64,000 bases of DNA from positions 8,592 through 72,591 of the forward strand of contig CAZXLH010000003.1 in assembly GCA_964641455.1 (NCBI GenBank), written 5' to 3'. Source of the DNA: an uncultured Eubacteriales bacterium (lineage in GTDB: Bacteria > Bacillota > Sulfobacillia > Fermentithermobacillales > Fermentithermobacillaceae). The notes beneath the pieces were generated by a model, which searched no databases, had not been told where the DNA came from, and saw nothing but the letters and a program-made list of their open reading frames with translations. Numbering within the stretch: position 1 is the first letter of the stretch; the number at the start of each line of letters is the position of its first letter. This document shows positions 13,256 through 55,573 of this stretch, one piece after another. The translations under genes were made by a program, and so were the position numbers.

Positions 13256-14386
13256 TTACTCGCCTAAGAGATTACGGGGATACTTGGTAAGGCTCTTAAT
13301 GCCTTCGGGTGTAAGCACCACGTCATCTTCAACCCTCACCCCTCCCTTTCCAGGGAGATAGATGCCCGGTTCTATGGTAAACGTGGATCCTACCGGCAGA
13401 GGGTTGTTATTTGATGCAACCACATAAGGCTCTTCATGTATTTCAAGCCCAAGCCCGTGCCCGGTCCTATGTATGAATTTATCTCCATAGCCATGGGCAG
13501 CAATCACGTCTCTGGCCAGAGCATCCACCTCGGCCCCGGTCATTCCGGGTTTTGCCTTGAGCCTGGCGTTTTGCTGAGCCTCTACCACAATTTGATATAC
13601 CCGCCTGAGTTCATCTGAAATCTCGCCAATGGCATAGGTTCTTGTAATATCAGACCAGTAACCGTTAACATTGGCACAAAGGTCCAGCCATGCCAAATCT
13701 CCCGGCTCAATAACCCGGGAGCCTGTGCCTGCATGAGGTATTGCAGTATCTGCCCCGGTTGCCAAAGACATTCCAACTGCCTGCGCTCCTTCCAGCTTCA
13801 ACTGCCTCTCGATCTCAAGCACTATTTCAGTAGCTCGTTTCCCCGGAGCCAGCAGCTTCTTAGCCAAATCCGCCCCCAAATCTGCGAGCCTTGCAGCTTC
13901 TTGCATGTTACTGAGTTCATCTTCATCCTTAACCATCCTGAGATCTTTCATGATTTCTCCTGCATCAACCCAGGAAAACTCATCCATGACACTCTTCATA
14001 AGCGAATACTCAAGCATTCTAAGGCTTCGATATTCCAAAGCCCATGTACCTGAGCGAGACTCAAGGGCTTCATTGAATGCTTTACGGGGGCCCTCTTCGT
14101 CGGTATACGAATGCACGGAAAAGTCAACCGGAACACCTTGATCTTTCAACTTACTTGATACCGATTCCCCTTTCTGCTTTTCCAGTTCAGGCATAACAAA
14201 ACAAGCTGTGCCCTCGCTTGTGACTATCAGCAAAGTCGGCCTTTCTGACAGCCCCATGGAAAGCCCGGTCATGTAGAACATGTTTGGCCCAGGCATAAAC
14301 ACTATACCTGATGCCCGGGAAGTTTTGATTGCTTTGGTGAGTTTGTCCCACCTGGCCTTAAGCATGTCAATTCTCCTTTCGTGCAA
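13256..14386 (-). CDS. Xaa-Pro dipeptidase/aminopeptidase (M24B)
   Basis: Creatinase N-domain plus D-L-C, SDITRT, HRTGHGLGLEIHE, TIEPGIY and RVEDD metal-site motifs. Confidence 0.93.
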   Translation of the reverse strand: MHERRIDMLKARWDKLTKAIKTSRASGIVFMPGPNMFYMTGLSMGLSERPTLLIVTSEGTACFVMPELEKQKGESVSSKLKDQGVPVDFSVHSYTDEEGPRKAFNEALESRSGTWALEYRSLRMLEYSLMKSVMDEFSWVDAGEIMKDLRMVKDEDELSNMQEAARLADLGADLAKKLLAPGKRATEIVLEIERQLKLEGAQAVGMSLATGADTAIPHAGTGSRVIEPGDLAWLDLCANVNGYWSDITRTYAIGEISDELRRVYQIVVEAQQNARLKAKPGMTGAEVDALARDVIAAHGYGDKFIHRTGHGLGLEIHEEPYVVASNNNPLPVGSTFTIEPGIYLPGKGGVRVEDDVVLTPEGIKSLTKYPRNLLGE

Positions 14387-14437: not shown

Positions 14438-16096
14438 TTACCGATCTACTTTGCTGGGAAAGCCTGTTAGCACCCTGTTTTTGTACCCATCGCCAAGTTT
14501 GAGGAAATTCTCCATTGTTTTGAGGCTCACCCTTGGCAGAGAGAAGATCACTTCAGTGAAATCCTTGTCGCTTAAACCAAACTCATCCTGCAAATCAGCA
14601 AGCCGCTTCATACCGTAGTAGTAACAGGTGAAATATCCTGCCATAAGCTGCTGAGCCAATACCTGGCCCTCGGCTACTTTCCTTTCGAACCCCAGCTCCT
14701 GAATATAAAGATCCACAATCTCGTCAAAAGGACGTCCGAAGTACCGTAGCCATAAATCAGCCTTTATCCTAACAGATGTATGATGGCGCCTGTATGCCAC
14801 AAACAGGGGGTAGAACGGATCTTCCGGATACACAAACTCCATAAGCCTTTCAGATCTATGAGCGCTGCCTTCAGACGTAGGCACTCCTCTGGCGCCTGCT
14901 TTGACTGTTTCGGGTAAAGGATCAAGCACGGCTCTCACCCACTGCACATGGTGGCCGGGATAACATTCATGAATAGCGTTCATTTTTATCCAGCCGTCTG
15001 TTATGGCCTTGTAATTTGCTACGTTAAGAATCGTCTCTCCTTGAAGAGGCCTTCTTCTCGGGCAACCGCCTCCGTAACCTCCCCACGGGTAATGCTTGAC
15101 CAAAGTCTCAGGGGTGGGTACCACAATGACACTTTCCTCAGGCAACCTTACATAGTCCCGGGTCGCCTTTTGAGCTCTGTCAAGATACTCTCTCATTCTC
15201 ACAAACATTTCATCAGGAGTATCACACGGGCCTTGAAACTTGTTAAGAATATCTACTACGTCCGCTACGGTTTCAGCCTTTGGCACGCCTGCAGCATCGA
15301 TATTATTTGCAATTTCAAACATTTCAGCTCTTGTTTTGTCAATTTCTTCTTCGTGCCAATCCAAAAGTTCGTCCAATTCCACTCCAAACTGGTTTTGAAG
15401 AAGGTACCTGTAACGTTCTATTGAATCTTCCTGAGGCTCATCAACCTTCTTGCCATTTGAATCCTTGCGTTCAAAAATATGTTGTCTTATTTGGTTTTCC
15501 CAATTTTTTGCCTTAACCGCAGTCTGTTCGAGGTTATACTCAATTTGCTCCATAGTTCTTTCAGAGAGGCCATTGAACAGTTTACGAACCCGAGGCTTCA
15601 TTTTGTGAGCAACAAGCGCAAGGGTATCGCACACATCCTCCATTTGCCCAACTTCTTCAATTTCTGTCTCCGGAAGAAGCCCTTCAATACCTTCCCGAAG
15701 TTGGTCTGCCATGCCCAACCTCGTAAGAAGGATCTTTGCCCTTTCAGTGCTCTCTCTTGAGTCCTTCCGTGAATAATAGTCTATAGAACCTGATAGGCCG
15801 CTTATAAATGAACCGGGAGCTTCAAACATTCTCTTTAAGGCAGAAACCTGCCCTTTTAAGAACTCATCAAAGTGATTCTTTAAGAGTTCATAAACCGGAT
15901 CCGGAGCCGGTAAGTTTGAAGCTTCATCTAAAAGAGCCTCAATCTCCTTTAGGGCTTGTTTCTTATCCTCTTCATGAGGCACATACAAATCTATTTCATA
16001 TTCCCGAATGTTCTTGAACTCGTCAAGCACGATAGCACACCTGGCGTCAAAATCCCTGTAACGTTCAACAAGCAAATTTCCTTCATTTACTTCCAT
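14438..16096 (-). CDS. DUF885-family protein, paralog 1 (putative metallopeptidase)
   Basis: AIHECYPGHHVQ motif, downstream EGSAH, and Y.TCYYYG; all-helical; no signal peptide. Confidence 0.75.
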   Translation of the reverse strand: MEVNEGNLLVERYRDFDARCAIVLDEFKNIREYEIDLYVPHEEDKKQALKEIEALLDEASNLPAPDPVYELLKNHFDEFLKGQVSALKRMFEAPGSFISGLSGSIDYYSRKDSRESTERAKILLTRLGMADQLREGIEGLLPETEIEEVGQMEDVCDTLALVAHKMKPRVRKLFNGLSERTMEQIEYNLEQTAVKAKNWENQIRQHIFERKDSNGKKVDEPQEDSIERYRYLLQNQFGVELDELLDWHEEEIDKTRAEMFEIANNIDAAGVPKAETVADVVDILNKFQGPCDTPDEMFVRMREYLDRAQKATRDYVRLPEESVIVVPTPETLVKHYPWGGYGGGCPRRRPLQGETILNVANYKAITDGWIKMNAIHECYPGHHVQWVRAVLDPLPETVKAGARGVPTSEGSAHRSERLMEFVYPEDPFYPLFVAYRRHHTSVRIKADLWLRYFGRPFDEIVDLYIQELGFERKVAEGQVLAQQLMAGYFTCYYYGMKRLADLQDEFGLSDKDFTEVIFSLPRVSLKTMENFLKLGDGYKNRVLTGFPSKVDR

Positions 16097-16240: not shown

Positions 16241-17434
16241 TTATCTGCGTCTTGGTTTGGATAACCTGCTTAACTTGAGAGGTTCTAAGTCAAGAACAGG
16301 TGTTTCACCGACCAGCATCTGAGATACAAGCACTCCGGTTATAGGAGCCAATCCTATTCCATCCCCTTCATGCCCTGCGGCAATATAAAGGCCCGGAACA
16401 GTATCTACATCTGAAATAATGGGCAAATGATCAGGGGTATAGGGCCTCAAACCTGCATAAGCCCTAATGACTCTTACATTCTCGATGCAAGGAAAAAACC
16501 TAAGGGCGCGTCGTGCCATAAGTTCAACCACCCGCATATTGCATGATGAATCGAAACCGGCAAATTCCCGGCTTGAGCCTATGAGAAAGTTGCCATGATG
16601 GGTTGGTTCAAAAACCATGGCTACCCCATATTTCTCCATGTCAGGTTCTACATCACGCCTGCCTGTTTGGCCGAATTTAGCCATTAAGTATCCAAACTCC
16701 TGCATCTTGCGGGAACCAACTTTGAAACTTTTCTCAGCAACAAGGATATGCCCTTTTCTGGGAATGATAGGCACATCTACACCACAGGTACGTGCGATCG
16801 AAGGGGTCCAAACGCCTGAAGCTAATACAACTTTGGGCGCCAAAATTTTCCCCTCACTTGTGTCTGCCCCCAGGATTCGGCCTTTGGCATCTTGAAGCAA
16901 ACAGCCTACCCGGGTAAAAGTTTTAATAAGAGCGCCCTTTCTCTTAGCTGCATCTACATACGCATAGGCCAAAGCCATTGGATTTAAGGATGAATCTGAG
17001 GCACATTCAAGAAGCCCAATAATATCTTGAGCAACCATTGGTTCATATTGATGAACGTCACAAGATCCTATGTACCGTACAGGAACTCCTGAACCCTTTA
17101 AGAGATTAGCCCATTCCAAAGCCATTTGAGCCTGGAGCCGGTTTTCCACTGCCAATGTACTCCCAGGCTGCCTGTATTCAAAATCAAATGAAAGTTCGTC
17201 TTGAAGCGTTGTATAAAGGCGCTGGCTTTCATAGGCCATTTTTGCATCGAATCCCGGCTGTTTGTCTATAACAAGCACATTCCCATCACACGCTGACGAA
17301 GTACCTGAAGCAACATCACCCTGTTCCACAGCAATAACTTTCATTCCGGCTTTGGAAAGATAATATGTTATAGACGCTCCGATGGCCCCACAGCCTACTA
17401 CCAATACATCACAAGTATCAACCATTTTCTTCAC
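16241..17434 (-). CDS. FAD-dependent amino-acid dehydrogenase catalytic subunit (DAO family), module 1
   Basis: GCGAIG dinucleotide fold, ASGTSSACDG, AGLRPYTPD and GHEGDGIGLAP motifs. Confidence 0.88.
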   Translation of the reverse strand: MKKMVDTCDVLVVGCGAIGASITYYLSKAGMKVIAVEQGDVASGTSSACDGNVLVIDKQPGFDAKMAYESQRLYTTLQDELSFDFEYRQPGSTLAVENRLQAQMALEWANLLKGSGVPVRYIGSCDVHQYEPMVAQDIIGLLECASDSSLNPMALAYAYVDAAKRKGALIKTFTRVGCLLQDAKGRILGADTSEGKILAPKVVLASGVWTPSIARTCGVDVPIIPRKGHILVAEKSFKVGSRKMQEFGYLMAKFGQTGRRDVEPDMEKYGVAMVFEPTHHGNFLIGSSREFAGFDSSCNMRVVELMARRALRFFPCIENVRVIRAYAGLRPYTPDHLPIISDVDTVPGLYIAAGHEGDGIGLAPITGVLVSQMLVGETPVLDLEPLKLSRLSKPRRR

Positions 17435-17690
17435 CGGCTAATAACCCAAAAGTCACAGGCAATATAGGGGGTCGTGCCCTGGCAGGCTCTATATCATCCA
17501 CTGGCTTATGCAATTCTCTTGCCAAAACATACATTAGCAAGTGCTCGCATGATCTGCCCTGGCACAAACCCATCCCTGCTCTGGTGCGCCTTTTAATACC
17601 GTTAATATCCGAAGCACCGCCGGCAATTGCCTTCTTTATCTCACCGAGGGTTACTTCCTCGCAACGGCAAACGATGACGCTGTCATCCAA
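17418..17690 (-). CDS. BFD-like [2Fe-2S] subunit, module 1
   Basis: CRCEEV...RAGMGLCQGRSC. Confidence 0.9.
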   Translation of the reverse strand: MDDSVIVCRCEEVTLGEIKKAIAGGASDINGIKRRTRAGMGLCQGRSCEHLLMYVLARELHKPVDDIEPARARPPILPVTFGLLAGEENG

Positions 17691-18861
17691 TCAAATTGCT
17701 CCTTTCGTTTTGAGTGTAGGATTTGTGTTCCTGCAGCTGTCGCCACTCATTGGCTATGGCTTGTTTGGCTCTTTGCTTGCTATACCCAAAGGGGCCTGCC
17801 CTAAGCCGGTTTAGCCTTTGCCAAGCAGTTTCCATTCGGCTGCTTACAGTTTGATGTGCCGCAGGATTAAACCTCCTGGCAATAGCCAGCCCGGCCACCC
17901 GGCCTTCTTCCATAGCTACTCCCGCTTCCTCAACACCTGCTAAATCGCCTGCAATGTAAATACCCCTAACACCGGTCTCCATTTCTTCATCATGTAAGGG
18001 GACCCATCCACCCAAATCAGGAACATACGAGAGAGTACATCCGGCTAAAGCCGCCAGGTTGGCATAGGGCCTTAACCCTGCCGCTATACAGACAGTATCT
18101 ACATCTACAATTGTCTTCGTATCTTCAATTACCTCGAAATCTGCATCTACTTCAGCAATTTCCGCACCACAAACCTGGTTCTCGCCTAATGCTCTTGTGA
18201 TAGTATGGCCTGTGAGCACCGGAACACCTGACCTTCTGGCTTTGGCCGCATGCACCGCATATCCTCCTATGCTCGGAGCCGCCTCTACTATACAAGAAAC
18301 CTCTGCTCCTGCCTGCATCAACTGGTAAGCGACTATAAGCCCAACATTGCCTGAACCAACAATTAAGAACCGCTTCCCTGGAAGCACTCTTTGTACATTG
18401 ACAAATGTTTGGGTTGCCCCTGCACCCATGACCCCGGGCAAGGTCCATCCCGGAAACATAACTGATTTTTCCGATGCACCTACTGCAAACACAAGGGTAC
18501 GGGCTAATACTACGTCCTTGCAGGGAGACGAACTGCCTGAAAACCTCGATTCGTGCACACCTCTAATGATTTCAACCACATTGCCGCTGTGCACTGCGTA
18601 TACTTCTGAATCCAGCCAAAACCTAACTCCAAGATCCAGGGCTTCGGCATAAAGCTGTTGTGCAATCAAAGTACCCCTCACACCCGCTTTGTGTTCCGTG
18701 GCACCGAAAAATCTGTGTATTTGCTTTGTTAGCTGGCCTCCGGGCACAAGGTTCGAATCGACTACAATCACACTCAAATCATACCTCGCAGCCTCGATGG
18801 CGGCAGTAAGCCCTGCAGGCCCGGCACCTACCACACATACGTCAACTTGTTGCCGACTCAT
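17683..18861 (-). CDS. NAD(P)/FAD-dependent oxidoreductase subunit, module 1
   Basis: GAGPAG, FPGWTLPGVMGAG, GSGNVG and GIYIAGD motifs. Start taken at the ATG at 18861. Confidence 0.88.
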   Translation of the reverse strand: MSRQQVDVCVVGAGPAGLTAAIEAARYDLSVIVVDSNLVPGGQLTKQIHRFFGATEHKAGVRGTLIAQQLYAEALDLGVRFWLDSEVYAVHSGNVVEIIRGVHESRFSGSSSPCKDVVLARTLVFAVGASEKSVMFPGWTLPGVMGAGATQTFVNVQRVLPGKRFLIVGSGNVGLIVAYQLMQAGAEVSCIVEAAPSIGGYAVHAAKARRSGVPVLTGHTITRALGENQVCGAEIAEVDADFEVIEDTKTIVDVDTVCIAAGLRPYANLAALAGCTLSYVPDLGGWVPLHDEEMETGVRGIYIAGDLAGVEEAGVAMEEGRVAGLAIARRFNPAAHQTVSSRMETAWQRLNRLRAGPFGYSKQRAKQAIANEWRQLQEHKSYTQNERSNLIG

Positions 18862-19168
18862 CACCAAAGCCTCCTGTTCCGTATTGGGTTTCAATTACCA
18901 TACCGCTTGTAACAGGAGTAACACATGTTTTTACATTCGGAACGCCGTTTACAGTCATAATACAATCGCTACACTGCCCAATTCCGCAAAATACTCCGCG
19001 CGGTTGGTGCCTTTTCGGAGTGTATCTGTGAATTCTGATTCCTGCGGCCATCAAGGCTGCAGCAATTGTTTCTCCGTCCCGGGCCAAAATTCTTCTTCCG
19101 TCAACAGTAATTTCCACTGGTTTAGCAGGTGGGAGCTTTCCAAGAACAGGGTGTGAAACCACTCTCAC
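18842..19168 (-). CDS. [2Fe-2S] (Fer2_4) subunit, module 1
   Basis: GETIAAAL...FCGIGQCSDC...C. Start taken at the GTG at 19168. Confidence 0.88.
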   Translation of the reverse strand: MRVVSHPVLGKLPPAKPVEITVDGRRILARDGETIAAALMAAGIRIHRYTPKRHQPRGVFCGIGQCSDCIMTVNGVPNVKTCVTPVTSGMVIETQYGTGGFGDESATS

Positions 19169-19223
19169 GTTTCTGCCTCCTTGCAAGGTAAAACCCTATG
19201 CAAATGCAAAAGCCGAACCGATA

Positions 19224-20228
19224 TCAAAGCAAAAATCCATTTTTTAAAGGATCCCTTGAATCAACCACAAAGTTGTGTATTCCGGTAACAAAAGCGCTTC
19301 CGGTTATCTCACATACAATGCCTGATACCCCTCCGACACAGGCTTCACCTACGATAGCGGCTGATAACCTGGTACCGATAATGCTTTCATTTATAAACAC
19401 TTCACCTACACCAATTTCGCCTCTTGCATACATAGATGCCAATACTGCACAAGTCCCCGTACCACACGGGGATCTGTCTATTGCATCGTGGGTAATCAAA
19501 ACCGCGTTTTTGCCATGGGTTTCAGGTGAAGACGGGCCTGCCTTAAAACATACATGAGTAACCCCTTCAATAAATGGCTTTTCAGGATGTACTACTTTGA
19601 ATTCTGCATTGATGGCTTGTCTTATCATTTTGCCTGCTCTGATTATGTCCAAAGATGATTCAGGGCTGACTTTCAAGCCAAGATCTTCAGCATCAACGAT
19701 AGCAAAGAAATTCCCGCCGTAAGCAATGTCGAACCTTATATTGCCGAGCCCCGATACGTATACATTCTTGTCGCCGGCATATAAAAAAGACGGTGCGTTA
19801 GTCAAAGTTACCGACTGAGTAACACCGTCTTTTACCAGGGCTCTTACATCAACCAGGCCTGCAGGAGTCTCGAGAGTAACAAGTGTAACAGGTTCGGAAA
19901 CACCAATTACCTTTGATTCAATAAGGGCAGTGCAAAAGCCAATTGTATCGTGGCCACACATAGGGAGGTAGCCACCTGCCTCAAGATAGATAACTCCCAC
20001 ATCTGCATCTGGATGGCACGGCTCTGTAAGTATAGCGCCTGACATCACACTATGCCCTCTTGGCTCTTGCATAAGCATAGTGCGAATGTGATCCATGTTC
20101 TCACGAAAATACAGCATCTTTTCAGATACTGTATTTCCCTGTATTGGGCCTATTCCTCCAATGATCGTCCTGGTAGGTTCGCCACAAGTATGCGTATCTA
20201 TACACATTACCGTTCTTTCGAATCTCAT
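19224..20228 (-). CDS. Proline racemase family enzyme, most likely 4-hydroxyproline 2-epimerase
   Basis: Both catalytic Cys are present (MCGH, DRSPCGTG). The HSVMSGA segment has Ser where clostridial proline racemase PrdF has Phe, resembling Bacillus-type Hyp epimerases. Confidence 0.85.
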   Translation of the reverse strand: MRFERTVMCIDTHTCGEPTRTIIGGIGPIQGNTVSEKMLYFRENMDHIRTMLMQEPRGHSVMSGAILTEPCHPDADVGVIYLEAGGYLPMCGHDTIGFCTALIESKVIGVSEPVTLVTLETPAGLVDVRALVKDGVTQSVTLTNAPSFLYAGDKNVYVSGLGNIRFDIAYGGNFFAIVDAEDLGLKVSPESSLDIIRAGKMIRQAINAEFKVVHPEKPFIEGVTHVCFKAGPSSPETHGKNAVLITHDAIDRSPCGTGTCAVLASMYARGEIGVGEVFINESIIGTRLSAAIVGEACVGGVSGIVCEITGSAFVTGIHNFVVDSRDPLKNGFLL

Positions 20229-20255: not shown

Positions 20256-20975
20256 CTAGTTGCTACTGCCGCTTTTTGCCTTCCCTAAAGCATCTCTTAC
20301 AATATCTAAATGCTCATGCATCTTGTTACCTGCAGACACTGCGTCTCCGTCATGCAAAGCTTGCAAGATAACTTCGAATTGCTCAACGGTTCGCTCGAAA
20401 GTATAAGGCAACGTCCTTAAGAATCTCTCAGCGTCTTTGTTGACTCTCCGAATCAAGACACTTACCAGCTCTGTCAATACTGCATTTTGACAGGCTCCGG
20501 CCAGAGTCAAATGAAAATCCAGCTCTTTTTCGAAAAACAGATCCATATCATCATCCATAACATCTTTCATTGATTCCAAAAGTTGCTCAAGTTTTGCAAT
20601 AACCTCATCAGTTGCCCTTTCAGCGGCAAGCCCGGCAGTGGTTACCTCAATCAGCCTTCTGGCCTCCATCAATTCAAAAGCAGGCGCCTGCTTCAGGGCC
20701 AACCTCCAATTCTGAGAGTTAATCAACGCCATGGCATCTTGGGACAAAAACCGGCCAACACCGGGCCTGGATTCAACAAGGCCCATATACTCCAGAGAAT
20801 GCAACGCTTCTCTTACTGACGAACGGCCCACTCCAAACCCTTCGCAAAGTTCCTTTTCCGTAGGCAGTTTCTCCCCCGGTTTGAGTACCCCGTTTTCAAT
20901 CATGTCGCGAATTCTGTCTGTAATCATCTCAGTGATTTTACTTGGCTTCCGTAAACGTCCTATATTACCTAGCAA
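20256..20975 (-). CDS. GntR/FadR-family transcriptional regulator
   Basis: LPTEKELCEGFGVGRSSVREAL winged HTH plus FCD domain. Confidence 0.93.
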   Translation of the reverse strand: MLGNIGRLRKPSKITEMITDRIRDMIENGVLKPGEKLPTEKELCEGFGVGRSSVREALHSLEYMGLVESRPGVGRFLSQDAMALINSQNWRLALKQAPAFELMEARRLIEVTTAGLAAERATDEVIAKLEQLLESMKDVMDDDMDLFFEKELDFHLTLAGACQNAVLTELVSVLIRRVNKDAERFLRTLPYTFERTVEQFEVILQALHDGDAVSAGNKMHEHLDIVRDALGKAKSGSSN

Positions 20976-21113
20976 ATTGCATCTCCCCCTCGTAAAGAAC
21001 CCTAATAAATCTTCCAGGGATTATCAGGCTGTCATACATCCTGATAATCATTCTATACCTATTAGGATTCCCCTGCAGAAAATCAACCTTTCGGGGAAGA
21101 TGAACCAGAGCCT

Positions 21114-22760
21114 CTATCTCACCGGGCCGGCAAATTGTGTTTGAAACCGAACCTTGTCCTCATCTGACAGTTCAAGAAACCTCTCAAAGTTGGCAAGGCT
21201 CAATCTGCCTACAGAGAAAAGAATCTCGGTAAACTCTTTGTCTCCATACTTAAACTTTGCCTGTAAATCTCCAATCTTCTTCATTCCATAATAATAGCAA
21301 GTCATATATCCAGGATTAAGTTCCTGGTAAAGCACCTGGCCCCTTGCAGATGTCCTATCAAACCCCAGTTCTTGCATATAAAGCTTAACTGCGTCATCCA
21401 CCGGTTTGCCAAAGTAATGAAGCCACAAATCAGCCTTAATCCTGACAGCGGTATGGTGCCGCCTTAGACGGACAAATAAAGGGAAAAACCGGTCAGGGAA
21501 AATATGTTCCATGAGTTTCTCTGATCGGTGAGCCGTGCCTTCCATTAAGGGAATATACCGCGAACCGATTTTCACCGTCTCAGGCAAAGGATCCATGGTG
21601 GTTCTGACAAACTGCACGTGATGCCCTGGATAACATTCGTGTATAGCCATCATCTTGAGCCAACCGTCTGTAACAGCCTTGTAATTGGTCTCATTCAGAA
21701 ATACCTCTCCAACAAGAGGCCTGCGTCTGAAACACCCTCCCCCGTACCCGCCCCATGGGTACGAATCTCTTGTTTGCTCAGGGGTAGGGCTTACAACACA
21801 GTGCTCTTCAGGCAATTTCACATAACCGTCTAACGTAGCTTTCTTTGCCGTTTCTACATAGCCTTTCATTCTGGAGAACATCTCTTCTACAGTGTCGCAA
21901 GGGCCGGCATGCTCATCTAATATTGCAAATACATCCGCCAATGATTTGACGGGCCTTACACCTAAATCCCTTGCTGTGTCCAACAGCTGCTCGCGTGTGG
22001 ATGCCATTTCCCTTTCGTGCCAATCCAACAGTTCTTCCAAACTCACACCAAGTTCGTTTTCGAGAATTCGCCTGTACCTTTCAGGGTTTACAGGCTTAGT
22101 TACGGAATCGGAGCCATGTTCAGCAGGGGTTTTGCTTTCGGCTGCATAAAGAGCTTCTTTCTCCCATGCTGCAGCCCTGGATACAATCTCATCAAGTTTG
22201 ACAGCAAGATCAGCTTGGGCCCTTGAATCAAGCTCATGATAGTACTTAGGAATATTGGTTTTTACGTTACAAGCTATAACCCGTAAAATTTTACATGCCC
22301 TTGCTACCTCTTGTATTTTGTCACTTTGAGAATCCGGGAATAACGCCTTAACCCCCTCCCACAGAGCGTCTGTCTGTGAAAGCCGGGCAGAAAGTACAGC
22401 CAAACGTTCTTGAGCAGGCCTGGAATCCTGGCGGGAATTGAAATCCAAAACCCATGTTTGCCCGCTCATAAAACGAGCCAAATGCTGAAAATTGGTCTCT
22501 ACGGCTGAAATCCGCCCTGTCAGGAATTCTATGAAATGAGATCTTAGAAGAGAAAATACAGGGTCAGGTTCAGGAAGTTTCTTGGCTTCTTCAAGCAGCG
22601 ATTCAAAAGCAGCCTTCATCTCCTCTTTCAAAGCAATGGAAGGTATTAAAGTGTGGGTTTCGTAATCACGGCTTGATGAATACTTATATACAGCCTGAGC
22701 GCACTTGGCGTCAAATTCGCAATAGATTTGCCTGACTGTATCGTTGTTTGGCTTAGTCAT
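21114..22760 (-). CDS. DUF885-family protein, paralog 2
   Basis: AIHECYPGHHVQ, EGTAHRSE and GYMTCYYYG motifs; visibly homologous to 14438..16096. Start taken at the ATG at 22760. Confidence 0.75.
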   Translation of the reverse strand: MTKPNNDTVRQIYCEFDAKCAQAVYKYSSSRDYETHTLIPSIALKEEMKAAFESLLEEAKKLPEPDPVFSLLRSHFIEFLTGRISAVETNFQHLARFMSGQTWVLDFNSRQDSRPAQERLAVLSARLSQTDALWEGVKALFPDSQSDKIQEVARACKILRVIACNVKTNIPKYYHELDSRAQADLAVKLDEIVSRAAAWEKEALYAAESKTPAEHGSDSVTKPVNPERYRRILENELGVSLEELLDWHEREMASTREQLLDTARDLGVRPVKSLADVFAILDEHAGPCDTVEEMFSRMKGYVETAKKATLDGYVKLPEEHCVVSPTPEQTRDSYPWGGYGGGCFRRRPLVGEVFLNETNYKAVTDGWLKMMAIHECYPGHHVQFVRTTMDPLPETVKIGSRYIPLMEGTAHRSEKLMEHIFPDRFFPLFVRLRRHHTAVRIKADLWLHYFGKPVDDAVKLYMQELGFDRTSARGQVLYQELNPGYMTCYYYGMKKIGDLQAKFKYGDKEFTEILFSVGRLSLANFERFLELSDEDKVRFQTQFAGPVR

Positions 22761-22908
22761 GAGGCCACCTCCAAAAAATGTATAGGTAAAATTACAACCG
22801 ATAATGTGGTGACCAGAGACGCAGGTTGTTGTGCCTGCGTCTCTATAGCAAATAATTTGGCCGAAGCAAAATCGCCGGTGGCTCACTTACTTCCGGCCGG
22901 GCCATACT

Positions 22909-24057
22909 CTAAACAACTGCCGGTTCTACCCGCAAGTCTCCTCTTTCAAAACGGGCAAGGTCTAAATCACTTATATCAATAGAAACCTCTTTGCCTAATA
23001 TCATCTCAGAAAGTAGTTGTCCGACTATAGGCGCTAACATAAACCCGTGGCCGCTGAACCCGACCGCCTGGTAATACCCGTCGATGCCCGGAACAGTCCC
23101 AAGTATGGGATGGGCATCAGGTGTAATAGTGTATAAGCCGGACCATTGCCTGATAACCCTAACGCCTTCAAGTGCCGGAACAAGTTTACACATGATGTCA
23201 GACATTCTTGCAAGGAACTGCCATGAATGGCCTATGTCATATCCTCTTGGCTCGTTTGGATCTCCAATTCCCATGACCAGGGATCCGTGAGGTGTCTGCT
23301 GACAGTAAATCCCAAGGGAAAAAGACATGAGCATAGGGTCAAACACATGGCCCACAGGTTCAGTAACCAAGATTTGGTGGCGCTCGGTATACAGAGGGAG
23401 TTTTACACCAACCATGGAAGCAACAGGAGCCGCCCAAGGCCCTGCAGCGTTTACCACAATTGAAGTAGATATGTCGCCTTTATTGGTCTTCACTTTGGTT
23501 ATTTTGCCATTTGATTTCTCAATCCCTGTAACCTCTGTAAAGCAGTTGACTTCGCCGCCGAGGCGCTCAAAAGCTTTTAAGTAAGCTCTTGTTGTGTGAA
23601 ACGGGTTGGCGTGGCCATCCCGGGCATTAAAGGTTGCCCCTAACATTCCTTCTGTATTGAGCGCAGGTACGATTTGTTTGGCATCTTCCGGAGTACATAC
23701 TTGTGCATTTACGCCCAACTTGTGTTGCACTTCAACGTTTTCCTTAAATTGCTCCCATTCTTTCTCACTATATGCCATCATCAGGTAACCTTTTTGTACA
23801 AACTCAATATCATAATCATATTGAAGTTCTTCCTGGAGACCCTCAAAAATGTCAATTGCAGCTTTGCATATTCTGATATTTCCTTCAGAGCCCCACTGCT
23901 CTCTAACCCCTGCACCGCATCGCCCGGTGGAACCGCTTGCGAAAGTATCCTTTTCACACAATACGACGTTCTTCATACCATGCTTCATAAGATTGTAGGC
24001 TATTGAAGCGCCGTTCACTCCTCCACCCACTACTACTGCGTCTGCTGAAGTTTTCAT
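22909..24057 (-). CDS. FAD-dependent dehydrogenase catalytic subunit (L-proline dehydrogenase beta / sarcosine oxidase beta-like), module 2
   Basis: GGGVNG, GSTGRCGAGVR, WSGLYTITPD and GFSGHGFMLAP motifs. Confidence 0.88.
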   Translation of the reverse strand: MKTSADAVVVGGGVNGASIAYNLMKHGMKNVVLCEKDTFASGSTGRCGAGVREQWGSEGNIRICKAAIDIFEGLQEELQYDYDIEFVQKGYLMMAYSEKEWEQFKENVEVQHKLGVNAQVCTPEDAKQIVPALNTEGMLGATFNARDGHANPFHTTRAYLKAFERLGGEVNCFTEVTGIEKSNGKITKVKTNKGDISTSIVVNAAGPWAAPVASMVGVKLPLYTERHQILVTEPVGHVFDPMLMSFSLGIYCQQTPHGSLVMGIGDPNEPRGYDIGHSWQFLARMSDIMCKLVPALEGVRVIRQWSGLYTITPDAHPILGTVPGIDGYYQAVGFSGHGFMLAPIVGQLLSEMILGKEVSIDISDLDLARFERGDLRVEPAVV

Positions 24058-24383
24058 TGGCCGGCCACCTCCTCTTGACACTTACAATCAGCACCATCTT
24101 CATCATCTTCTGAAATGATGGCCAACTCACCCATTTTTATAGGTTTAACAGGGGGCCTGTAACGAGACTGAAGGATTTCAGAAACCGGTTTTCCGAGATA
24201 CCTGGCAATCTCCCCTGCCACCAGCAACCTACAAGTTCTTCCTTGGCATGGCCCCATACCGGCTCTGGTTATGCGTTTGACTTCGTCTAAGGTGGTTGCG
24301 CCTTCTCTAATGGCTTTTCGTACCTCTCCCAATGTCACGTCTTCGCACCGGCAAACAATAATGTCGTTTTCAGCCTTAGCCAT
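24054..24383 (-). CDS. BFD-like [2Fe-2S] subunit, module 2
   Basis: CRCEDV...RAGMGPCQGRTC. Confidence 0.9.
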   Translation of the reverse strand: MAKAENDIIVCRCEDVTLGEVRKAIREGATTLDEVKRITRAGMGPCQGRTCRLLVAGEIARYLGKPVSEILQSRYRPPVKPIKMGELAIISEDDEDGADCKCQEEVAGQ

Positions 24384-24386
24384 GGC

Positions 24387-24896
24387 TCACCCCACCCTTT
24401 CAACAAGTTCAAAGTTTCTTACCGTCATAGACAATTGCTTTGGGGCTCGTACCCAAACAACAGGCGTTCCTTGAGGCTTCTTGCCGGGAAGCACTCTGTG
24501 AACCAACCCTTCCCCTACTTTTTCACCTGCCCTATCCAATAAAGACACTTTATCTCCTTTATCGGGCATGGGAGCGAACTCAAAGGGAATTGCTACCAAG
24601 CATTCAGTATCGCTAAAAGTTTCATCGACAACAAAAATCGCCAACCCCGGGCAAGCAGCTACACACACCCCGCAACCGGTACATTTGCTCCAATCTACCT
24701 CGGGAATATCATTTATTGATTCAAACTGCCGAATAGCACCAAACTTGCAACTATAATGGCATGGGTCGCACGGAATCTCCTGAAAGCATTCAACTACAAC
24801 AAAAGGCCCTTTTTCTCTCCGGGATTTCGGCGGCGTTCTGCTTTCAATTTGCTCTTTTGACGGAACACCGGTGGTCAAAAGAATATCGCTTTTCAC
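24387..24896 (-). CDS. 2x[4Fe-4S] ferredoxin-like subunit, module 2
   Basis: CFQEIPCDPCHYSC and CTGCGVCVAACP motifs. Confidence 0.9.
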   Translation of the reverse strand: MKSDILLTTGVPSKEQIESRTPPKSRREKGPFVVVECFQEIPCDPCHYSCKFGAIRQFESINDIPEVDWSKCTGCGVCVAACPGLAIFVVDETFSDTECLVAIPFEFAPMPDKGDKVSLLDRAGEKVGEGLVHRVLPGKKPQGTPVVWVRAPKQLSMTVRNFELVERVG

Positions 24897-26008
24897 ACGC
24901 TCACCCTCTTTCCCAATTGCTCTCTCAAAACAGCCAACCCTTCCACAATTGGTTTACTGGTCGGGCCCGCTCTCAATTGCTCCAATTCCTCTAAAGACGC
25001 TTTGTGTTTTTGTGAAAATTCGTTTGCAGAAACCTTGCCAAGGCTGTTGGCAACTGCCAACCCTGCAAGCCGCCCTTCTGCCATGGCAGTAGAAGCTTCT
25101 TCTATGCTGGCAACGTCCCCGGCCACATAGATGCCCTCTACCGTTGTTTCCATGTTCTCGTCGTAAAGAGGAACAAAACCGCCAAGGGCTGATACATAAG
25201 TCATTTCAGCTCCTGCCTGCCACAAGAACTCACACAAAGGCGTAAGGCCTGTAGCCAAGCATACAACATCTACTTTCAGGTCTTTTTCAGTGCCCGGGAT
25301 TCCCTGCCACTTGTCATCAAGCTGCCAGATAATCGCACCTTCCACAGAGTGCTTCCCATACGCTTCTTTAATGCTGTGCCTTGTAAGTATGGGAATGCCA
25401 AGCCGCCGGATTTTCGAGGCATGTACCGCATAACCGCCTATTGCCGGCAGAGCTTCAACGAGCGCTGTCACCTTCACACCGGCTTGCACAAGCTGGTAAC
25501 TTACAATCAGGCCGATATTTCCGGACCCTATCATCAATACAGAGTCGCCTGGCTTAACCCCATGAACATTCATGAGGGTCTGCACAGCGCCTGCCCCATA
25601 AACCCCCGGCAAATCGTTGCCCGGGAAAAGAAGCATTTTTTCAGATGCTCCTGTAGCTATCAAGAGTTTGGTGGCTTTGAGTTTCTCAATTCCGTGGGGA
25701 GTCTCAAGAAGCAGTACACCATCATCCTTGTAATACCCTAAAACTTCGGTAGATTTCATAAAGCAAATGTTTTGATTTTGCCCTATATCGTCAGCGAGAT
25801 TATTTGAAATTACAATTCCACGAGTCCCTGCGCTTTTTTCGTGCCACCCAAAGAACTTATGGGTCTGTTTTACCAGCTGCCCACCGATCCCATCGTCCCT
25901 ATCAATAAGGGTGACCTTAACTCCGTAAGAGGCAGCTTCAAGAGCAGCACAGACACCTGCAGGACCCGCTCCTACAATTGCAAGCTCTGTAGTCTTCAAC
26001 AAAGTCAC
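24893..26008 (-). CDS. NAD(P)/FAD-dependent oxidoreductase subunit, module 2
   Basis: GAGPAG, FPGNDLPGVYGAG and GIYVAGD motifs; paralog of 17683..18861. Confidence 0.88.
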   Translation of the reverse strand: MTLLKTTELAIVGAGPAGVCAALEAASYGVKVTLIDRDDGIGGQLVKQTHKFFGWHEKSAGTRGIVISNNLADDIGQNQNICFMKSTEVLGYYKDDGVLLLETPHGIEKLKATKLLIATGASEKMLLFPGNDLPGVYGAGAVQTLMNVHGVKPGDSVLMIGSGNIGLIVSYQLVQAGVKVTALVEALPAIGGYAVHASKIRRLGIPILTRHSIKEAYGKHSVEGAIIWQLDDKWQGIPGTEKDLKVDVVCLATGLTPLCEFLWQAGAEMTYVSALGGFVPLYDENMETTVEGIYVAGDVASIEEASTAMAEGRLAGLAVANSLGKVSANEFSQKHKASLEELEQLRAGPTSKPIVEGLAVLREQLGKRVSV

Positions 26009-26337
26009 TCCTTACTTACCAGGTCAGGCCCAACACCTTTTTGCATCTCAACGTGCATGCCTGCCCTTAGTTTTTCGGTGCACGCCCTAACATTAGGAAC
26101 CCCGTCAACAACCACCAAACACGAAGAACAATTGCCTATTGCACAAAAAAAGCCGCGCGCACGGCCCTCTTTCATGCTCTCATGAAGCACCTTGATGCCT
26201 GAAGCATGAAGAGCGCTTGCTATCGGCTCGCCTTCGTACCCCCAAAGTTCCTTTCCTTCCCAATAGAACTTAACTTTCTTCCTCTCGGTGAAGTCCAGTA
26301 TTGGGTGTTCTCTGATTCTGATTTCCGAAGATTCCAA
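26005..26337 (-). CDS. [2Fe-2S] (Fer2_4) subunit, module 2
   Basis: GEPIASAL...FFCAIGNCSSC...C. Confidence 0.88.
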   Translation of the reverse strand: MESSEIRIREHPILDFTERKKVKFYWEGKELWGYEGEPIASALHASGIKVLHESMKEGRARGFFCAIGNCSSCLVVVDGVPNVRACTEKLRAGMHVEMQKGVGPDLVSKE

Positions 26338-26551
26338 AGATTAATGCCCCCCTCCTGTGAACAATTATTGCTTGTAAGGATATTGCCAAGCCCGGGAAGC
26401 GCCCTGTCAATACAATTGCATCCCGAATCGAACGCCTCCCGGGCCGAAAGCCTATTAATCTGCATTTACGAATCCATGATTCAAGTTCTGCCAAACTTTG
26501 CTTACTCAGGCCACTGTATTGATTAAGTTTTCTCACAAACGCCTGCACAGG

Positions 26552-28411
26552 CTATCCGAGATCATAACCTGCTTCTTCAAGAGTCTTGGCTGCATATTCC
26601 AGCCCGAGTTCCTCCAATTTCTTCTTGGTTGGAATACCGTCTGAAGTCCACCCTCGCTTGGCGTAGTAATCATCGAGCATAATGTCTATTTTTTGCCTGG
26701 GTATGAATTTGCCTTTGGCAGGCCCTGATGGGACAGGTTCTTCCATAAACCTGGCAGGAGGATAATCCCATGGCCTTCCAAAACCTTTGTTTTCCCTCGC
26801 GGTCAAAGCCCGGGTCAGATTCCACACTCTTTCGGCAACCAAAATAAGATCTTGCCATCCGTAAGGAAGCCCTGTAATCAACGGAAAGATTTCGCCATAG
26901 TGCTGTTCTTCAAATCCGATTTCCACCCACTGCAGCCTGCAAGTGCCTAACAAGTCAAATACAGGCCTTATGTGCTGAAGTTCAATGGTTTTGTCGGCTT
27001 TACCTTCGGTTGTGTCACGGCCTTCAGCCACATCAAAGGTAACTGCCCACGAACGATTGTGGTGGGCGCCTATATCGCATGTAATGTAAGAAAGCATCAT
27101 CGCCGGAGCCCATCTTGCTTCGTATCCTGTCCATTCAAGCCCCTTTACTTGAATCGCAAACCTGTCAGAATCTCCGCCAATCTCGTCAGCCGCAGCCCGA
27201 ACTCCCTTTGCCAAAAGATCGCCTATACCTTCACGATGCGCCATCTTCTCAAGAAGATAAACTACTGATTCAAGGTCGCCCCAGGCCAGTTTTCGCCCTA
27301 CCTGTTCTTCGGTAAGAAGCCCTTTTTCAAAGCACTCTATGGCAAAGGCAGCCAGGTTTCCGCCTGAAATCGTGTCTAATCCAAGTTCATCGGCAACCCA
27401 GTTGGCGTAAGCAACTTCTTCGATTGTGTCTATGGCCACATTGCCTCCGAGCATTGCAATTGTTTCGTACTCAGGGCCCTCCACCAAAATTTCCCCTAAT
27501 TTGGTGCATGCCTTCGAGTATTTTCCACAAGGCGTTGGACAAGCAAAACATCCCTTGTCAGTCTGCAAAATTCGATCTTTAAGTGCCTGGCCATTGATCC
27601 CTTTGTGGCCCTCGAAATAGTTTGTAGAGAAGTTCTTTGTGGGAAAAACTCCGGCAGTGTTAGCCCAGTCAACCACTTCAGCAGTGCCATACGGGGTCCA
27701 TGTCTTGAATCCTGGCTTATGAAAACACACCTTATACATTTCCCTCGATTTTTCAAAAGCCTTCTTGGTGTCTGTAATCGGAATGGTATGTGAGCCGCGC
27801 ACCGCCACAGCCTTCACTTTCTTCCATCCCAGTACGGCGCCAATGCCTGTTCTCCCTGCCTGCCTGCCGTAATCATGCGATACACATGCAAATTTTACAA
27901 GGTTTTCGCCTGCAGGGCCGATCAGGGCAATCTGGAAGTCTTCACCCAACTTGTCTTTGAGCATTTTTTCTGCCGTGATACACCCAACGCCCCACACGTC
28001 TGACGCATCTTCAAAAGTGACTTTGTCATCATCTATCACTACTATTGTTGGCTTATCTGATTTACCTCTTATAATAAGGGCGTCATATCCTGCAAACTTA
28101 ATTTCAGGGGCAAAATGCCCGCCCATGTTTGAGTCACCGTAACCGTTTGTGGCAGGAGACTTACAGCCCATATGCACCTTGCCTGAAGCAGGCAAATGTA
28201 CACCGCCTAACGGGCCGGGCGCCATTACTACAACGTTTTCTGCTGAAAACGGCTCGGCACCTGCGGGAACCATGTCCCAAAGAAGTTTGGCAACAAACCC
28301 ACGTCCGCCAATATATTCTTTTATCAGTTTCTCATCAGTCGGAATTTGCCTTGATGTTTTTGAAGATAAATCAATCTCCAAAAGTTTACCCATATAGCCA
28401 CCATATGTCAT
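26552..28411 (-). CDS. aor: Aldehyde:ferredoxin oxidoreductase (tungsten AOR family)
   Basis: KSPATNG..DSNMGG, AGRTGIGAVLG.KKVKA, EGPEYET, C..CP..C and GLDTISGG motifs. Confidence 0.93.
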   Translation of the reverse strand: MTYGGYMGKLLEIDLSSKTSRQIPTDEKLIKEYIGGRGFVAKLLWDMVPAGAEPFSAENVVVMAPGPLGGVHLPASGKVHMGCKSPATNGYGDSNMGGHFAPEIKFAGYDALIIRGKSDKPTIVVIDDDKVTFEDASDVWGVGCITAEKMLKDKLGEDFQIALIGPAGENLVKFACVSHDYGRQAGRTGIGAVLGWKKVKAVAVRGSHTIPITDTKKAFEKSREMYKVCFHKPGFKTWTPYGTAEVVDWANTAGVFPTKNFSTNYFEGHKGINGQALKDRILQTDKGCFACPTPCGKYSKACTKLGEILVEGPEYETIAMLGGNVAIDTIEEVAYANWVADELGLDTISGGNLAAFAIECFEKGLLTEEQVGRKLAWGDLESVVYLLEKMAHREGIGDLLAKGVRAAADEIGGDSDRFAIQVKGLEWTGYEARWAPAMMLSYITCDIGAHHNRSWAVTFDVAEGRDTTEGKADKTIELQHIRPVFDLLGTCRLQWVEIGFEEQHYGEIFPLITGLPYGWQDLILVAERVWNLTRALTARENKGFGRPWDYPPARFMEEPVPSGPAKGKFIPRQKIDIMLDDYYAKRGWTSDGIPTKKKLEELGLEYAAKTLEEAGYDLG

Positions 28412-28812
28412 ACCCTGTGCACCTCCCCTGATTCATCTGCCAGGGCTTCTCTTGGGCAATACTTCACGCATTCGCCGCAGCTGATACATTTGAATGCAAC
28501 ATTCTTTTCTTTGATAAAGCGTATGACCTGCTCAGGGCACGCATCTACGCAAACCTCGCATCCTATACATTCCGCTTCATCAACAAAGAGAACCCCCTCT
28601 GAGTTTTCTTTGATTGCGCCTGTAGGACAAACATCTTTGCATACTCCGCATTCAGTACACACTTGCAGTTCATAAGTACCCGGGCTGGGGAAATGCTGAA
28701 TAACATTGATGGTTCCATACCTGGGGTTATTCAGGCCGTGATTTGCAAGTGAGCAAACCAGGAGACACGCTTTGCAGCCTGAACACAATTTGGACACTGT
28801 TTTTAGTTTCAC
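28408..28812 (-). CDS. Multi-[4Fe-4S] ferredoxin partner of AOR
   Basis: Four CxxCxxC-type motifs; GGAGG RBS in front of the GTG at 28812; overlaps the aor start. Confidence 0.9.
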   Translation of the reverse strand: MKLKTVSKLCSGCKACLLVCSLANHGLNNPRYGTINVIQHFPSPGTYELQVCTECGVCKDVCPTGAIKENSEGVLFVDEAECIGCEVCVDACPEQVIRFIKEKNVAFKCISCGECVKYCPREALADESGEVHRV

Positions 28813-29187
28813 GAGACCCTCCTCCAAACCTTAAGAAATTTGTGACCCTCTATACTTGGCTACTCACGGCATGAATGCGCTCATGCCCGAACCAAACATA
28901 ACCACGGGCTCGAAAACGGTGCTTCGAGCCACCTAGCCTAATAACAGTTACATTAATGGAAATGCCTGAAAAGTATGCCTTATCACAATTCGTCATATTT
29001 TCGCGGAAGTCCTGCTTGGGTCCTATTTCAATCTATGTCAGTTTGGATTAAATCTTAGATGTCAGAGTGTTGGTTAACTTTGTTTTACAACTTATCTCAA
29101 AACTCTCGGGCACATATTGCGATATTGTGTCCCACTATTTTAATAACAGATCTTTTAGCAGTTTGACATCAGCTCATCAGACAAAAA

Positions 29188-47775: not shown

Positions 47776-47782
47776 CTACCTC

Positions 47783-48745
47783 CTATTGCGACAGCTTTTC
47801 ATGGTTCCAACATCGAATGGTATGTCCGTTGCCTAAATCAGTTATAGGCGGGCTGCAATCGTAGCATTTTTGCGTAGCATAGTTGCACCGATCAGCAAAA
47901 CGGCAAGCATCCTCTGGATCTATGGGAGAAGTAATCTCACCTCGTAGCAGTATGCGGCCGGCCTCTTTGTCCAAACTCGGCACCGGAATAGCCGATAGCA
48001 GCGCCTGGGTATAGGGGTGGCGAGGGTTGGCAAACAATTCCCGAACCGGAGCCTTTTCCACCATTTGCCCTAAATACATAACCAGAATATTGTTTGAAAT
48101 GTGCTTAACCACTGACAGGTCATGGGTAATGAACATGTACGTATAGCCAAACTTCTGCTGCAAACGCTTGAGCAAATTGAGAATTTGCGCTTGAATTGAC
48201 ACGTCCAATGCCGACACCGGTTCGTCACAAACAATGAATTCCGGATCCAGCGCTAACGCACGAGCTATTCCAATTCGCTGGCGGCGTCCACCGTCAAGCT
48301 CATGAGGATAAGAGTTGACCAGACGGTCTGCCAGCCCCACAAGTTCCATAAGCTCATATACCCGGTTTTCAAGGCCCGTGTTGTCGGAATACACTTTGTG
48401 AATGATTAGGGGCTCTGCAATCGTATCGTACACCGTCTTGCGTGGGTTCAGCGAAGAAAACGGATCTTGGAAAATGATCTGGACTCGTTTGCGATACTCT
48501 TTCAACTCATTGCCTTCAAGGTTAAGTATGTTTTCCCCATCGAAAAACACTTCTCCGTCTGTAGCATCGGTTAATCTGACCATAACCCTGCCCATAGTGC
48601 TTTTTCCACATCCGGATTCACCAACAACGCCAAGGGTTTCACCTTTGTCAATCGTAAAATTCACACCGTCCACCGCATGGAGCAGGCCGCCAGGGGTTTC
48701 GAAATACTTCGTAAGGTTTCTTACCTCTATGTAGTGTTCAGACAT
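47783..48745 (-). CDS. Oligopeptide ABC transporter ATPase (OppF-like)
   Basis: GESGCGKST, ELDGGRRQRIG and HPYTQALLSAIP motifs. Confidence 0.92.
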   Translation of the reverse strand: MSEHYIEVRNLTKYFETPGGLLHAVDGVNFTIDKGETLGVVGESGCGKSTMGRVMVRLTDATDGEVFFDGENILNLEGNELKEYRKRVQIIFQDPFSSLNPRKTVYDTIAEPLIIHKVYSDNTGLENRVYELMELVGLADRLVNSYPHELDGGRRQRIGIARALALDPEFIVCDEPVSALDVSIQAQILNLLKRLQQKFGYTYMFITHDLSVVKHISNNILVMYLGQMVEKAPVRELFANPRHPYTQALLSAIPVPSLDKEAGRILLRGEITSPIDPEDACRFADRCNYATQKCYDCSPPITDLGNGHTIRCWNHEKLSQ

Positions 48746-49778: not shown

Positions 49779-49787
49779 ATCCCTCCC

Positions 49788-50687: not shown

Positions 50688-50688
50688 C

Positions 50689-51651: not shown

Positions 51652-51679
51652 GGTCTCTCCCCTATTTCGTTCTTCGTCG

Positions 51680-51719: not shown

Positions 51720-51746
51720 TACAAACAAAGAAATATCTCTACAGCA

Positions 51747-54575: not shown

Positions 54576-54592
54576 GGAAATACCTCCTTTGC

Positions 54593-55537: not shown

Positions 55538-55573
55538 AGACCGTCTTCCTTTTTTGATTATGTAGTGGCTATT

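Follow-up and report, generated by a model that had tools for sequence, protein, structure and literature searches.

The genes analyzed here lie on the minus strand of a 64,000-nucleotide stretch of contig C3 (hereafter, the window) from an uncultured Eubacteriales bacterium, whose genome is 97% complete in 176 contigs; the analysis covered positions 16241 to 20228 and their flanks. Profile searches confirmed five open reading frames (ORFs) in this interval, each with a strong family match, as in the preliminary description of the stretch, which had seen a two-cysteine racemase heading a four-gene dehydrogenase module. In the direction of transcription, these ORFs encode a proline-racemase-superfamily (PRS) enzyme of 334 amino acids, a predicted 4-hydroxyproline 2-epimerase (19224..20228; PF05544 Pro_racemase, 3.9e-117); a gamma subunit, which is a 114-amino-acid 2Fe-2S protein of the Fer2_4 type with Cys67/72/75/88 (18842..19186; PF13510, 3.5e-32); an alpha subunit, a Pyr_redox_2 flavoprotein with two dinucleotide folds, GAGPAG and GSGNVG (17683..18861; 2.1e-33); a delta subunit, a BFD-like 2Fe-2S protein of 90 amino acids with Cys8/10/43/48 (17418..17690; Fer2_BFD/SO_alpha_A3, PF04324, 3e-15); and a beta subunit, a DAO-family flavoprotein of 397 amino acids (16241..17434; PF01266, 3e-58). 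The epimerase gene and the four genes of this module (module 1) are separated by at most 37 nucleotides or overlap. As listed, the alpha subunit ORF spans 17683-18894 from a TTG at 18894, yet its start is probably the ATG at 18861, because GGAGG stands 9 nucleotides upstream of it.

All genes from about 6.5 to about 35 kb of the window share the minus strand. A GntR/FCD-family regulator gene (20256..20975; PF00392, 2.5e-21, and PF07729, 2.1e-26) lies 27 nucleotides upstream of the epimerase gene; in loci L065, L068, L042, and L115, the epimerase gene is likewise preceded by a GntR gene, as is lhpA in Pseudomonas aeruginosa. About 45 nucleotides upstream of the regulator gene, a consensus scan found a palindromic, promoter-like site (TTATCA-16-GATAAT; 21020..21047, minus strand), which is a weak candidate for the operon's promoter or operator, because such sites are no commoner in the region than in shuffled sequence. 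On the other side, the beta subunit gene is followed by a DUF885 gene (paralogue a; 14438..16096; PF05960, 7.3e-29), in the position where relatives carry a DapA-type deaminase gene, and by a gene for an M24 Xaa-Pro dipeptidase (13256..14386; PF00557, 9e-60), the last of the conserved block, whose top NCBIfam match is PepQ (225 bits, under the cut-off). With moderate confidence, we read this order—GntR, epimerase, gamma, alpha, delta, beta, DUF885, M24 prolidase—as the core of an operon under GntR control that would carry out, without oxygen, the two initial steps of epimerase-type hydroxyproline breakdown. The operon is real and its parts are ordinary; it stands out by its host, by coexisting with HypD, a radical enzyme, and by a loss of the later pathway genes that is conserved in its lineage.

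Predicted identity of the epimerase and the dehydrogenase

Both catalytic cysteines of the PRS enzyme are present, C91 (in MCGH) and C255 (in DRSPCGTG), and align with C130 and C300 of the Trypanosoma cruzi proline racemase TcPRAC. Among the sites that discriminate within the superfamily (Watanabe 2015, PMC4364671), site 1 is Phe only in proline racemases (ProR) and Ser or Val in hydroxyproline epimerases (HypE), His at site 4 is specific to HypE, and site 5 distinguishes ProR (Phe) from HypE (Cys or Tyr); moreover, the substitutions F62S and L221H move the preference of the archaeal enzyme TlProR toward hydroxyproline (PMC4364671). The window enzyme carries Ser63, His225, and Ile245 at sites 1, 4, and 5, thus agreeing with HypE at sites 1 and 4. 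Ser63 aligns with the Phe of proline racemases (TcPRAC F102, TlProR F62, AsProR), and His225 occupies the position of L221 in TlProR and of a His in P. aeruginosa LhpA. We placed these residues in an alignment of 268 homologues, composed of the best 120 database matches, the PRS genes of the fetched loci (L039-L057 and L065-L144), and the annotated P. aeruginosa LhpA. The pattern Ser, Cys, His, Ile/Val/Phe/Leu, Cys is found in 205 of the 268, including every epimerase that stands beside an orthologue of the module-1 DAO gene, while LhpA reads Val, Cys, His, Cys, Cys. Eleven of the 268, racemase-type homologues of the phylum, have Phe at the position of Ser63 and read Phe, Cys, Leu, Phe, Cys; the one such copy whose surroundings were checked (L048) adjoins PrdA, PrdB, and PrdD.

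The genome holds a single PF05544 gene and, by tblastn, no PrdA. Given this and the Ser/His/Ile signature in place of Phe, Leu, Phe, we rejected a Stickland-type proline racemase (PrdF) as the identity of the window enzyme. The suggestion that Ser replaces the Phe of PrdF, and that the protein belongs to the epimerase type and not with PrdF, thus holds.

The window carries two paralogous dehydrogenase modules, of which module 2 lies upstream with its DAO subunit at 22909-24081. The two are readily told apart: the module-2 DAO protein matches the beta subunit of the Pyrococcus horikoshii L-proline dehydrogenase (1Y56_B) with 311 bits, compared to only 85 bits for module 1, whereas against the annotated P. 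aeruginosa LhpB the module-1 beta subunit scores 153 bits (29% identity) and that of module 2 scores 74 bits. Among solved structures, the top match of the module-1 beta subunit is glycine oxidase (122 bits). The remaining subunits point in the same direction as LhpB, as gamma is 32% identical to P. aeruginosa LhpF, alpha shows local similarity to LhpE, and delta matches a stretch of LhpE, into which the BFD-like domain is fused in Pseudomonas. The four Fe-S cysteine ligands of gamma are fully conserved in 66 homologues and the four of delta in 77, and GxGxxG motifs occur twice in alpha and once in beta. A tree of 89 beta subunits places LhpB as the sister of the entire module-1 family and the module-2 type outside both, with the split between the LhpB/module-1 type and the L-proline dehydrogenase type at 100 SH-aLRT. 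Finally, a Ser/His epimerase gene stands beside the module-1 DAO orthologue in 75 of 80 genome loci, as it does in the window. The epimerization and dehydrogenation steps are therefore both well supported as predictions from sequence, and they accord with the reading of module 1 as an LhpBEF-type D-hydroxyproline dehydrogenase, which the similarity to LhpB, the LhpBEF subunit set, and the epimerase linkage all favor.

Related operons and the truncated lineage of the window

We scanned for beta subunits in one genome per species, obtaining 80 loci, and in metagenomes, obtaining 80 further loci, and profiled these by tblastn with the window proteins and reference neighbors, counting downstream genes only where at least 3 kb lay beyond the DAO gene. 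The loci fall into two operon types. In the Bacillales type, which has no 4Fe-4S subunit, the 53 genome loci with enough flank include 42 with a DHDPS (DapA-like deaminase) gene, 41 with an aldehyde dehydrogenase gene, and none with a gene for an aldehyde ferredoxin oxidoreductase (AOR). The anaerobe type has the gene order epimerase, Fer2, PNR, Fer4, BFD, DAO, that is, a five-gene dehydrogenase module with an extra 4Fe-4S subunit, and occurs in Thermotogota, Bipolaricaulota, Ignavibacteriales, Spirochaetota, Halanaerobiales, Cloacimonadota, one Actinomycetota metagenome-assembled genome (MAG), Defluviitaleaceae, and Sellimonas. Here, DHDPS was found in 12, AOR in 7, and aldehyde dehydrogenase in 2 of the 15 genome loci counted; for the 22 metagenome loci, the corresponding numbers are 17, 15, and 4. 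In total, AOR is present in 22 of 37 anaerobe-type loci, compared to 0 of 65 of the Bacillales type. The AORs linked to module 1 in these relatives form at least two or three separate clades, which suggests repeated recruitment. Our literature search found no pairing of a hydroxyproline epimerase with an aldehyde ferredoxin oxidoreductase and no description of the anaerobe-type operon.

These distributions bear on the published view, according to which anaerobes rely on HypD, a radical enzyme, and the route via the epimerase and D-hydroxyproline dehydrogenase "occurs only in aerobes" owing to a possible O2 requirement of the dehydrogenase (Huang et al. 2018, PMC6219649). Because orthologous operons are present in many anaerobic phyla, the route does not seem to be limited to aerobes, and the premise of the preliminary description that it is mostly aerobic has to be given up for the same reason; at the level of genes, the anaerobe operon contradicts the published aerobes-only hypothesis. 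Among the carriers of the five-gene module and epimerase are gut Lachnospiraceae (Sellimonas intestinalis, L101; S. catena, L111; and L190, L193, L194, and L199), whose loci also hold a DHDPS gene and an NAD-type aldehyde dehydrogenase gene and which are thereby relevant to a published statement that this route is of little importance in the gut.

Few amino acids are as abundant in animal protein as hydroxyproline. If the anaerobe-type operons, which add a ferredoxin-like subunit and often a ferredoxin-linked aldehyde oxidoreductase, are active, estimates of the hydroxyproline consumers in guts, digesters, and sediments would change, and several uncharacterized AOR clades would gain a natural substrate. 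The window poses a more specific puzzle: a selected, truncated form of this operon, coexisting with HypD, and without a recognizable means to complete the pathway.

The beta subunit of the window and that of L065 (77% identical) are nested in the clade of five-gene operons (99 SH-aLRT), yet the window has no 4Fe-4S subunit, no adjacent DHDPS deaminase, and no AOR of the module-1-linked type, with DUF885 and M24 genes instead. From this nesting, we infer that the lineage has lost all three components. L065 is a Bacillota MAG from an anaerobic membrane bioreactor and is syntenic with the window from module 2 through an S9 peptidase gene, and L146, a 5-kb metagenome contig, has the order PNR, BFD, DAO, DUF885, M24, as in the window; the reading frames are intact in all three copies found of this lineage. 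When the window is compared with L065, the epimerase and all four subunits have dN/dS values of 0.07-0.14; synonymous sites are saturated in this comparison, and neighboring genes give similar values. The truncated operon is under purifying selection and not decaying.

The host is a strictly anaerobic, peptide-fermenting bacterium; neither COX1 nor cytochrome bd was found in the 97%-complete genome, and the presence of HypD and two AORs is likewise in keeping with an anaerobic setting. Nine kilobases from the operon, the window encodes HypD (NF043068, 1451 bits against a cut-off of 1100). Since HypD shares the window with the epimerase module, both hydroxyproline strategies, radical and epimerase, are encoded here, as had been proposed.

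Several further genes for the use of imino acids and peptides were seen in the course of this survey. In the window, 45619-56953 holds genes for a PepX-type X-Pro dipeptidyl peptidase, an Opp-type ABC transporter, an M19 dipeptidase, an OCD/mu-crystallin protein (54593-55537), and a beta-eliminating lyase; hutH and hutU come next. Elsewhere, an island in genome G082 (L042) combines an OCD-family gene, a Cys/Thr PRS gene of the 3-hydroxyproline (3-Hyp) dehydratase type, an ABC transporter, GntR, a Ser/His epimerase, HypD and its activase, and both aconitase-X subunits, a gene set equipping a single anaerobe for several isomers of hydroxyproline.

The downstream steps and competing explanations

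In the mechanism that we propose, peptidases would free trans-4-hydroxy-L-proline from Xaa-Hyp peptides, and the two-cysteine enzyme would invert C2 to yield cis-4-hydroxy-D-proline, which the DAO-type beta subunit would oxidize to delta1-pyrroline-4-hydroxy-2-carboxylate. The alpha flavoprotein, with its two Rossmann folds, may then receive the electrons by way of both 2Fe-2S proteins and pass them not to a respiratory chain but to a soluble acceptor, either NAD(P)+ or ferredoxin. As a best guess, an unlinked or nonorthologous enzyme would make 2-oxoglutarate semialdehyde, and one of the two AORs of the genome would convert it to 2-oxoglutarate.

A number of observations weigh against this scheme. 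On the side of the enzyme, (i) site 5 is Ile245 and not the Cys or Tyr of characterized HypE, a criterion drawn from proteobacterial enzymes only; (ii) the protein scores under the NCBIfam equivalog cut-offs for both ProR (393 of 556) and HypE (NF010578, 352 of 376), and far under those of NF052296 and NF010577; (iii) its overall similarity is greater to solved proline racemases, at 319 bits, than to HypE of P. aeruginosa, at 145 bits; and (iv) we found no assayed member of the Ser/His clade in the literature, the Bacillus cereus branch (PRS cluster 4) having been assigned by growth and transcription only, with an insoluble protein (Zhao 2014, eLife, PMC4113996). On the side of the pathway, both DHDPS genes of the genome (on contigs C38 and C10) fall outside the 62-member clade of pathway-linked deaminases (99 SH-aLRT, long branches), the route has no obvious productive end without a deaminase, and the L isomer is already taken care of by HypD, encoded in this window, which makes the need for a second route less than clear.

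C38 and C10 are the only contigs with PF00701 matches, and C12 and C21 the only ones with PF00171 matches; C3 has neither, in line with the preliminary description, according to which no DapA-like or NAD-dependent aldehyde dehydrogenase gene lies nearby. Searches of this genome and of one sister genome found no deaminase of the pathway type; in the sister genome, the DHDPS genes are a housekeeping dapA and one unrelated, divergent gene, offering no conserved candidate. We therefore disfavor as the missing deaminase the product of the DapA-like gene on C10, which is neither in the pathway-linked clade nor conserved in the sister genome, and its neighbors (L007:7936-11461), an IclR/BhcR-like regulator and a class-V aminotransferase, suggest a different role. 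This C10 cluster is reminiscent of the final part of the animal-type hydroxyproline route, with its HOGA1-like aldolase and AGXT-like transaminase, and might act with module 2 and the AOR rather than with module 1. The same contig (L007:3533-6697) carries a B12-dependent ribonucleotide reductase of 1054 amino acids with an internal intein N-terminal splicing region.

For the oxidation of the aldehyde, the only strong aldehyde dehydrogenase of the genome is a P5C dehydrogenase (TIGR01236, 777 bits), and the genome holds no gene of the KGSADH type. Of its two AORs, the one in the window (26552-28411) is nearest to P. furiosus FOR (1B25, 460 bits), and thus FOR-like, and clusters with the AOR of G120 (L054), which stands behind a module-2-type dehydrogenase and a ferredoxin; AORs of this type travel with module-2-type dehydrogenases (L054 and L065). 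We therefore rejected the window AOR as an orthologue of the module-1-linked AORs; judged by this grouping, its natural partners look like module 2 and HypD, with glutamate semialdehyde as a candidate substrate. In a small tree (13 sequences), the second AOR, encoded on C1, clusters at 99 SH-aLRT with those found downstream of module 1 and DHDPS in Bipolaricaulota and Defluviitaleaceae; its neighborhood consists of unrelated, uninformative genes. Either AOR could oxidize 2-oxoglutarate semialdehyde. The earlier idea that an AOR replaces the aldehyde dehydrogenase thus finds support in the relatives, given the 22 of 37 anaerobe-type loci, but not in the AOR of the window, which is not of the module-1-linked type.

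The window AOR belongs to a conserved unit at 22909-28827, also found in L054 (G120) and L065, that comprises a five-gene module of the L-proline dehydrogenase type, a ferredoxin, and the FOR-like AOR; its composition suggests conversion of proline via glutamate semialdehyde to glutamate with ferredoxin as the acceptor. In G120, a PRS gene of the true proline racemase type (Phe, Leu, Phe) lies 2.5 kb from this unit.

The DUF885 gene after the DAO gene is kept in L065 and L146, and a DUF885-M24 pair stands upstream of the epimerase gene in L070. The genome has four DUF885 paralogues with about 48% mutual identity, on contigs C10 and C87 and at 14438-16096 and 21114-22886 of the window, where the two copies directly follow the two dehydrogenase modules. 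Both window copies are devoid of an HExxH motif, and for paralogue a we found no useful solved homologue (26 bits) and no functional DUF885 literature; it is probably a peptidase partner of M24. A distinctly unlikely idea is that the imino acid is handled without a DapA-type deaminase, for instance by DUF885 acting on the cyclic imine, or by passing the ring-opened 2-oxo acid to a 2-oxoacid:ferredoxin oxidoreductase. If true, this would constitute a third, undescribed anaerobic hydroxyproline route beside HypD and HplG.

The main rival of an epimerase-type breakdown pathway, which we consider unlikely, is that the epimerase mainly serves HypD, by converting cis-4-hydroxy-D-proline from the environment (and perhaps D-proline) to the L forms used by HypD and module 2, with module 1 as a side outlet or scavenger for D-imino acids. 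Ser/His epimerase genes do adjoin HypD and its activase in G283, G082, and G133 (L039, L042, and L050), three genomes without a module-1 DAO orthologue (best identity 29-34%), and in the window HypD is 9 kb away; the loss of the deaminase would fit a role that needs no downstream carbon pathway. However, the window epimerase is packed with module 1 under its own GntR gene, separate from the HypD unit, and the purifying selection on the four dehydrogenase genes indicates that these matter. It is very unlikely that the pair acts as a proline racemase and D-proline dehydrogenase, forming delta1-pyrroline-2-carboxylate that an OCD-family reductase returns to L-proline or whose ring-opened 2-oxo acid is used. 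The overall proximity to solved proline racemases, the bifunctionality of the archaeal relative TlProR, and the OCD-family genes in the sister operon L065 and at 54593-55537 of the window speak for it; Ser/His at sites 1 and 4 speaks against it, where every Prd-type homologue reads Phe/Leu and where F62S and L221H shift TlProR toward hydroxyproline, as do the orthologues of both genes, which sit in clusters with the deaminase and aldehyde oxidizer typical of hydroxyproline. In L065, the OCD-family gene (L065:14316-15284) sits between M24 and PucR in an otherwise syntenic operon and is 46% identical to the OCD gene beside the 3-Hyp dehydratase gene in G082, but it has no orthologue in this genome (25-27% identity), so that we rejected an OCD-family reductase as a conserved next step. 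The genome itself has two OCD-family genes and one proC, and no Ldh_2-family gene (Pyr2C reductase type) was found in it.

We give little credence to the notion of a decaying remnant whose genes no longer work after the loss of the deaminase, AOR, and 4Fe-4S subunit. The position of the window DAO protein inside the five-gene-operon clade does imply these losses, for which no replacement was found, but the three independent copies have intact frames, all catalytic and cluster-binding residues are retained, and the low dN/dS has accrued since the split from L065, when the operon was already truncated. Nor do we find it credible, to any greater degree, that module 1 oxidizes another amine, such as glycine (for HCN synthase), sarcosine, opines, or L-proline: its subunit set is common to HcnABC, opine dehydrogenase, and archaeal L-proline dehydrogenase (PMC4575208), and glycine oxidase is the best solved match of its beta subunit, but its orthologue family adjoins a Ser/His epimerase in the great majority of loci, and the L-proline dehydrogenase type is a separate clade, represented in the window by module 2.

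Comparison with known hydroxyproline and proline systems

In P. aeruginosa, LhpA is a 4-hydroxyproline 2-epimerase and LhpB/LhpE/LhpF form a heterododecameric D-hydroxyproline dehydrogenase (Watanabe 2012, as summarized in PMC4575208 and PMC6219649), in a cluster with the order GntR, epimerase, LhpB, 2Fe-2S protein, FAD/NAD(P) oxidoreductase. The window shares with this cluster the GntR gene, a two-Cys epimerase with His at site 4, a DAO-type beta subunit, a 2Fe-2S gamma subunit, and a two-Rossmann alpha subunit. It differs in that identities are only 29-34%, the BFD-like domain is encoded by a separate fourth gene, and sites 1 and 5 of the epimerase are Ser and Ile instead of the Val and Cys of LhpA; moreover, no terminal oxidase, LhpC-type deaminase, or LhpG-type dehydrogenase was found in the host genome. 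The clusters of the B. cereus type (Priestia megaterium pBMV_2, L064; B. cereus group, L140), which Zhao 2014 (PMC4113996) tied to growth on hydroxyproline, are closer. Their epimerase is 52% identical, with the signature Ser, His, Val, their beta subunit is 47-49% identical, and they likewise have separate BFD-like and Fer2 proteins and no 4Fe-4S subunit. Unlike the window, however, they belong to aerobes and hold a DHDPS deaminase and an NAD(P) aldehyde dehydrogenase, and the window DAO protein branches inside the anaerobe clade and not with them.

The proline cluster of Thermococcales, with TlProR and the alpha4beta4 and alpha-beta-gamma-delta L-proline dehydrogenases (PMC4364671; PDB 1Y56 and 6J7C), offers a parallel in that a PRS enzyme stands beside multisubunit flavin/Fe-S imino-acid dehydrogenases in an anaerobe, with a four-subunit architecture. 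Yet sites 1, 4, and 5 of TlProR are Phe, Leu, and Trp, and the Thermococcales beta type matches module 2 of the window (311 bits) and not module 1 (85 bits). The closest counterpart is the anaerobe-type operon, which in its full form reads epimerase, Fer2, PNR, Fer4, BFD, DAO, DHDPS, AOR. Although the window departs from it in having DUF885 and M24 and no 4Fe-4S subunit, DHDPS, or adjacent AOR, this operon type provides the nearest relatives of every module-1 gene (57-62% identity for the beta subunit), in the same order and in likewise anaerobic hosts.

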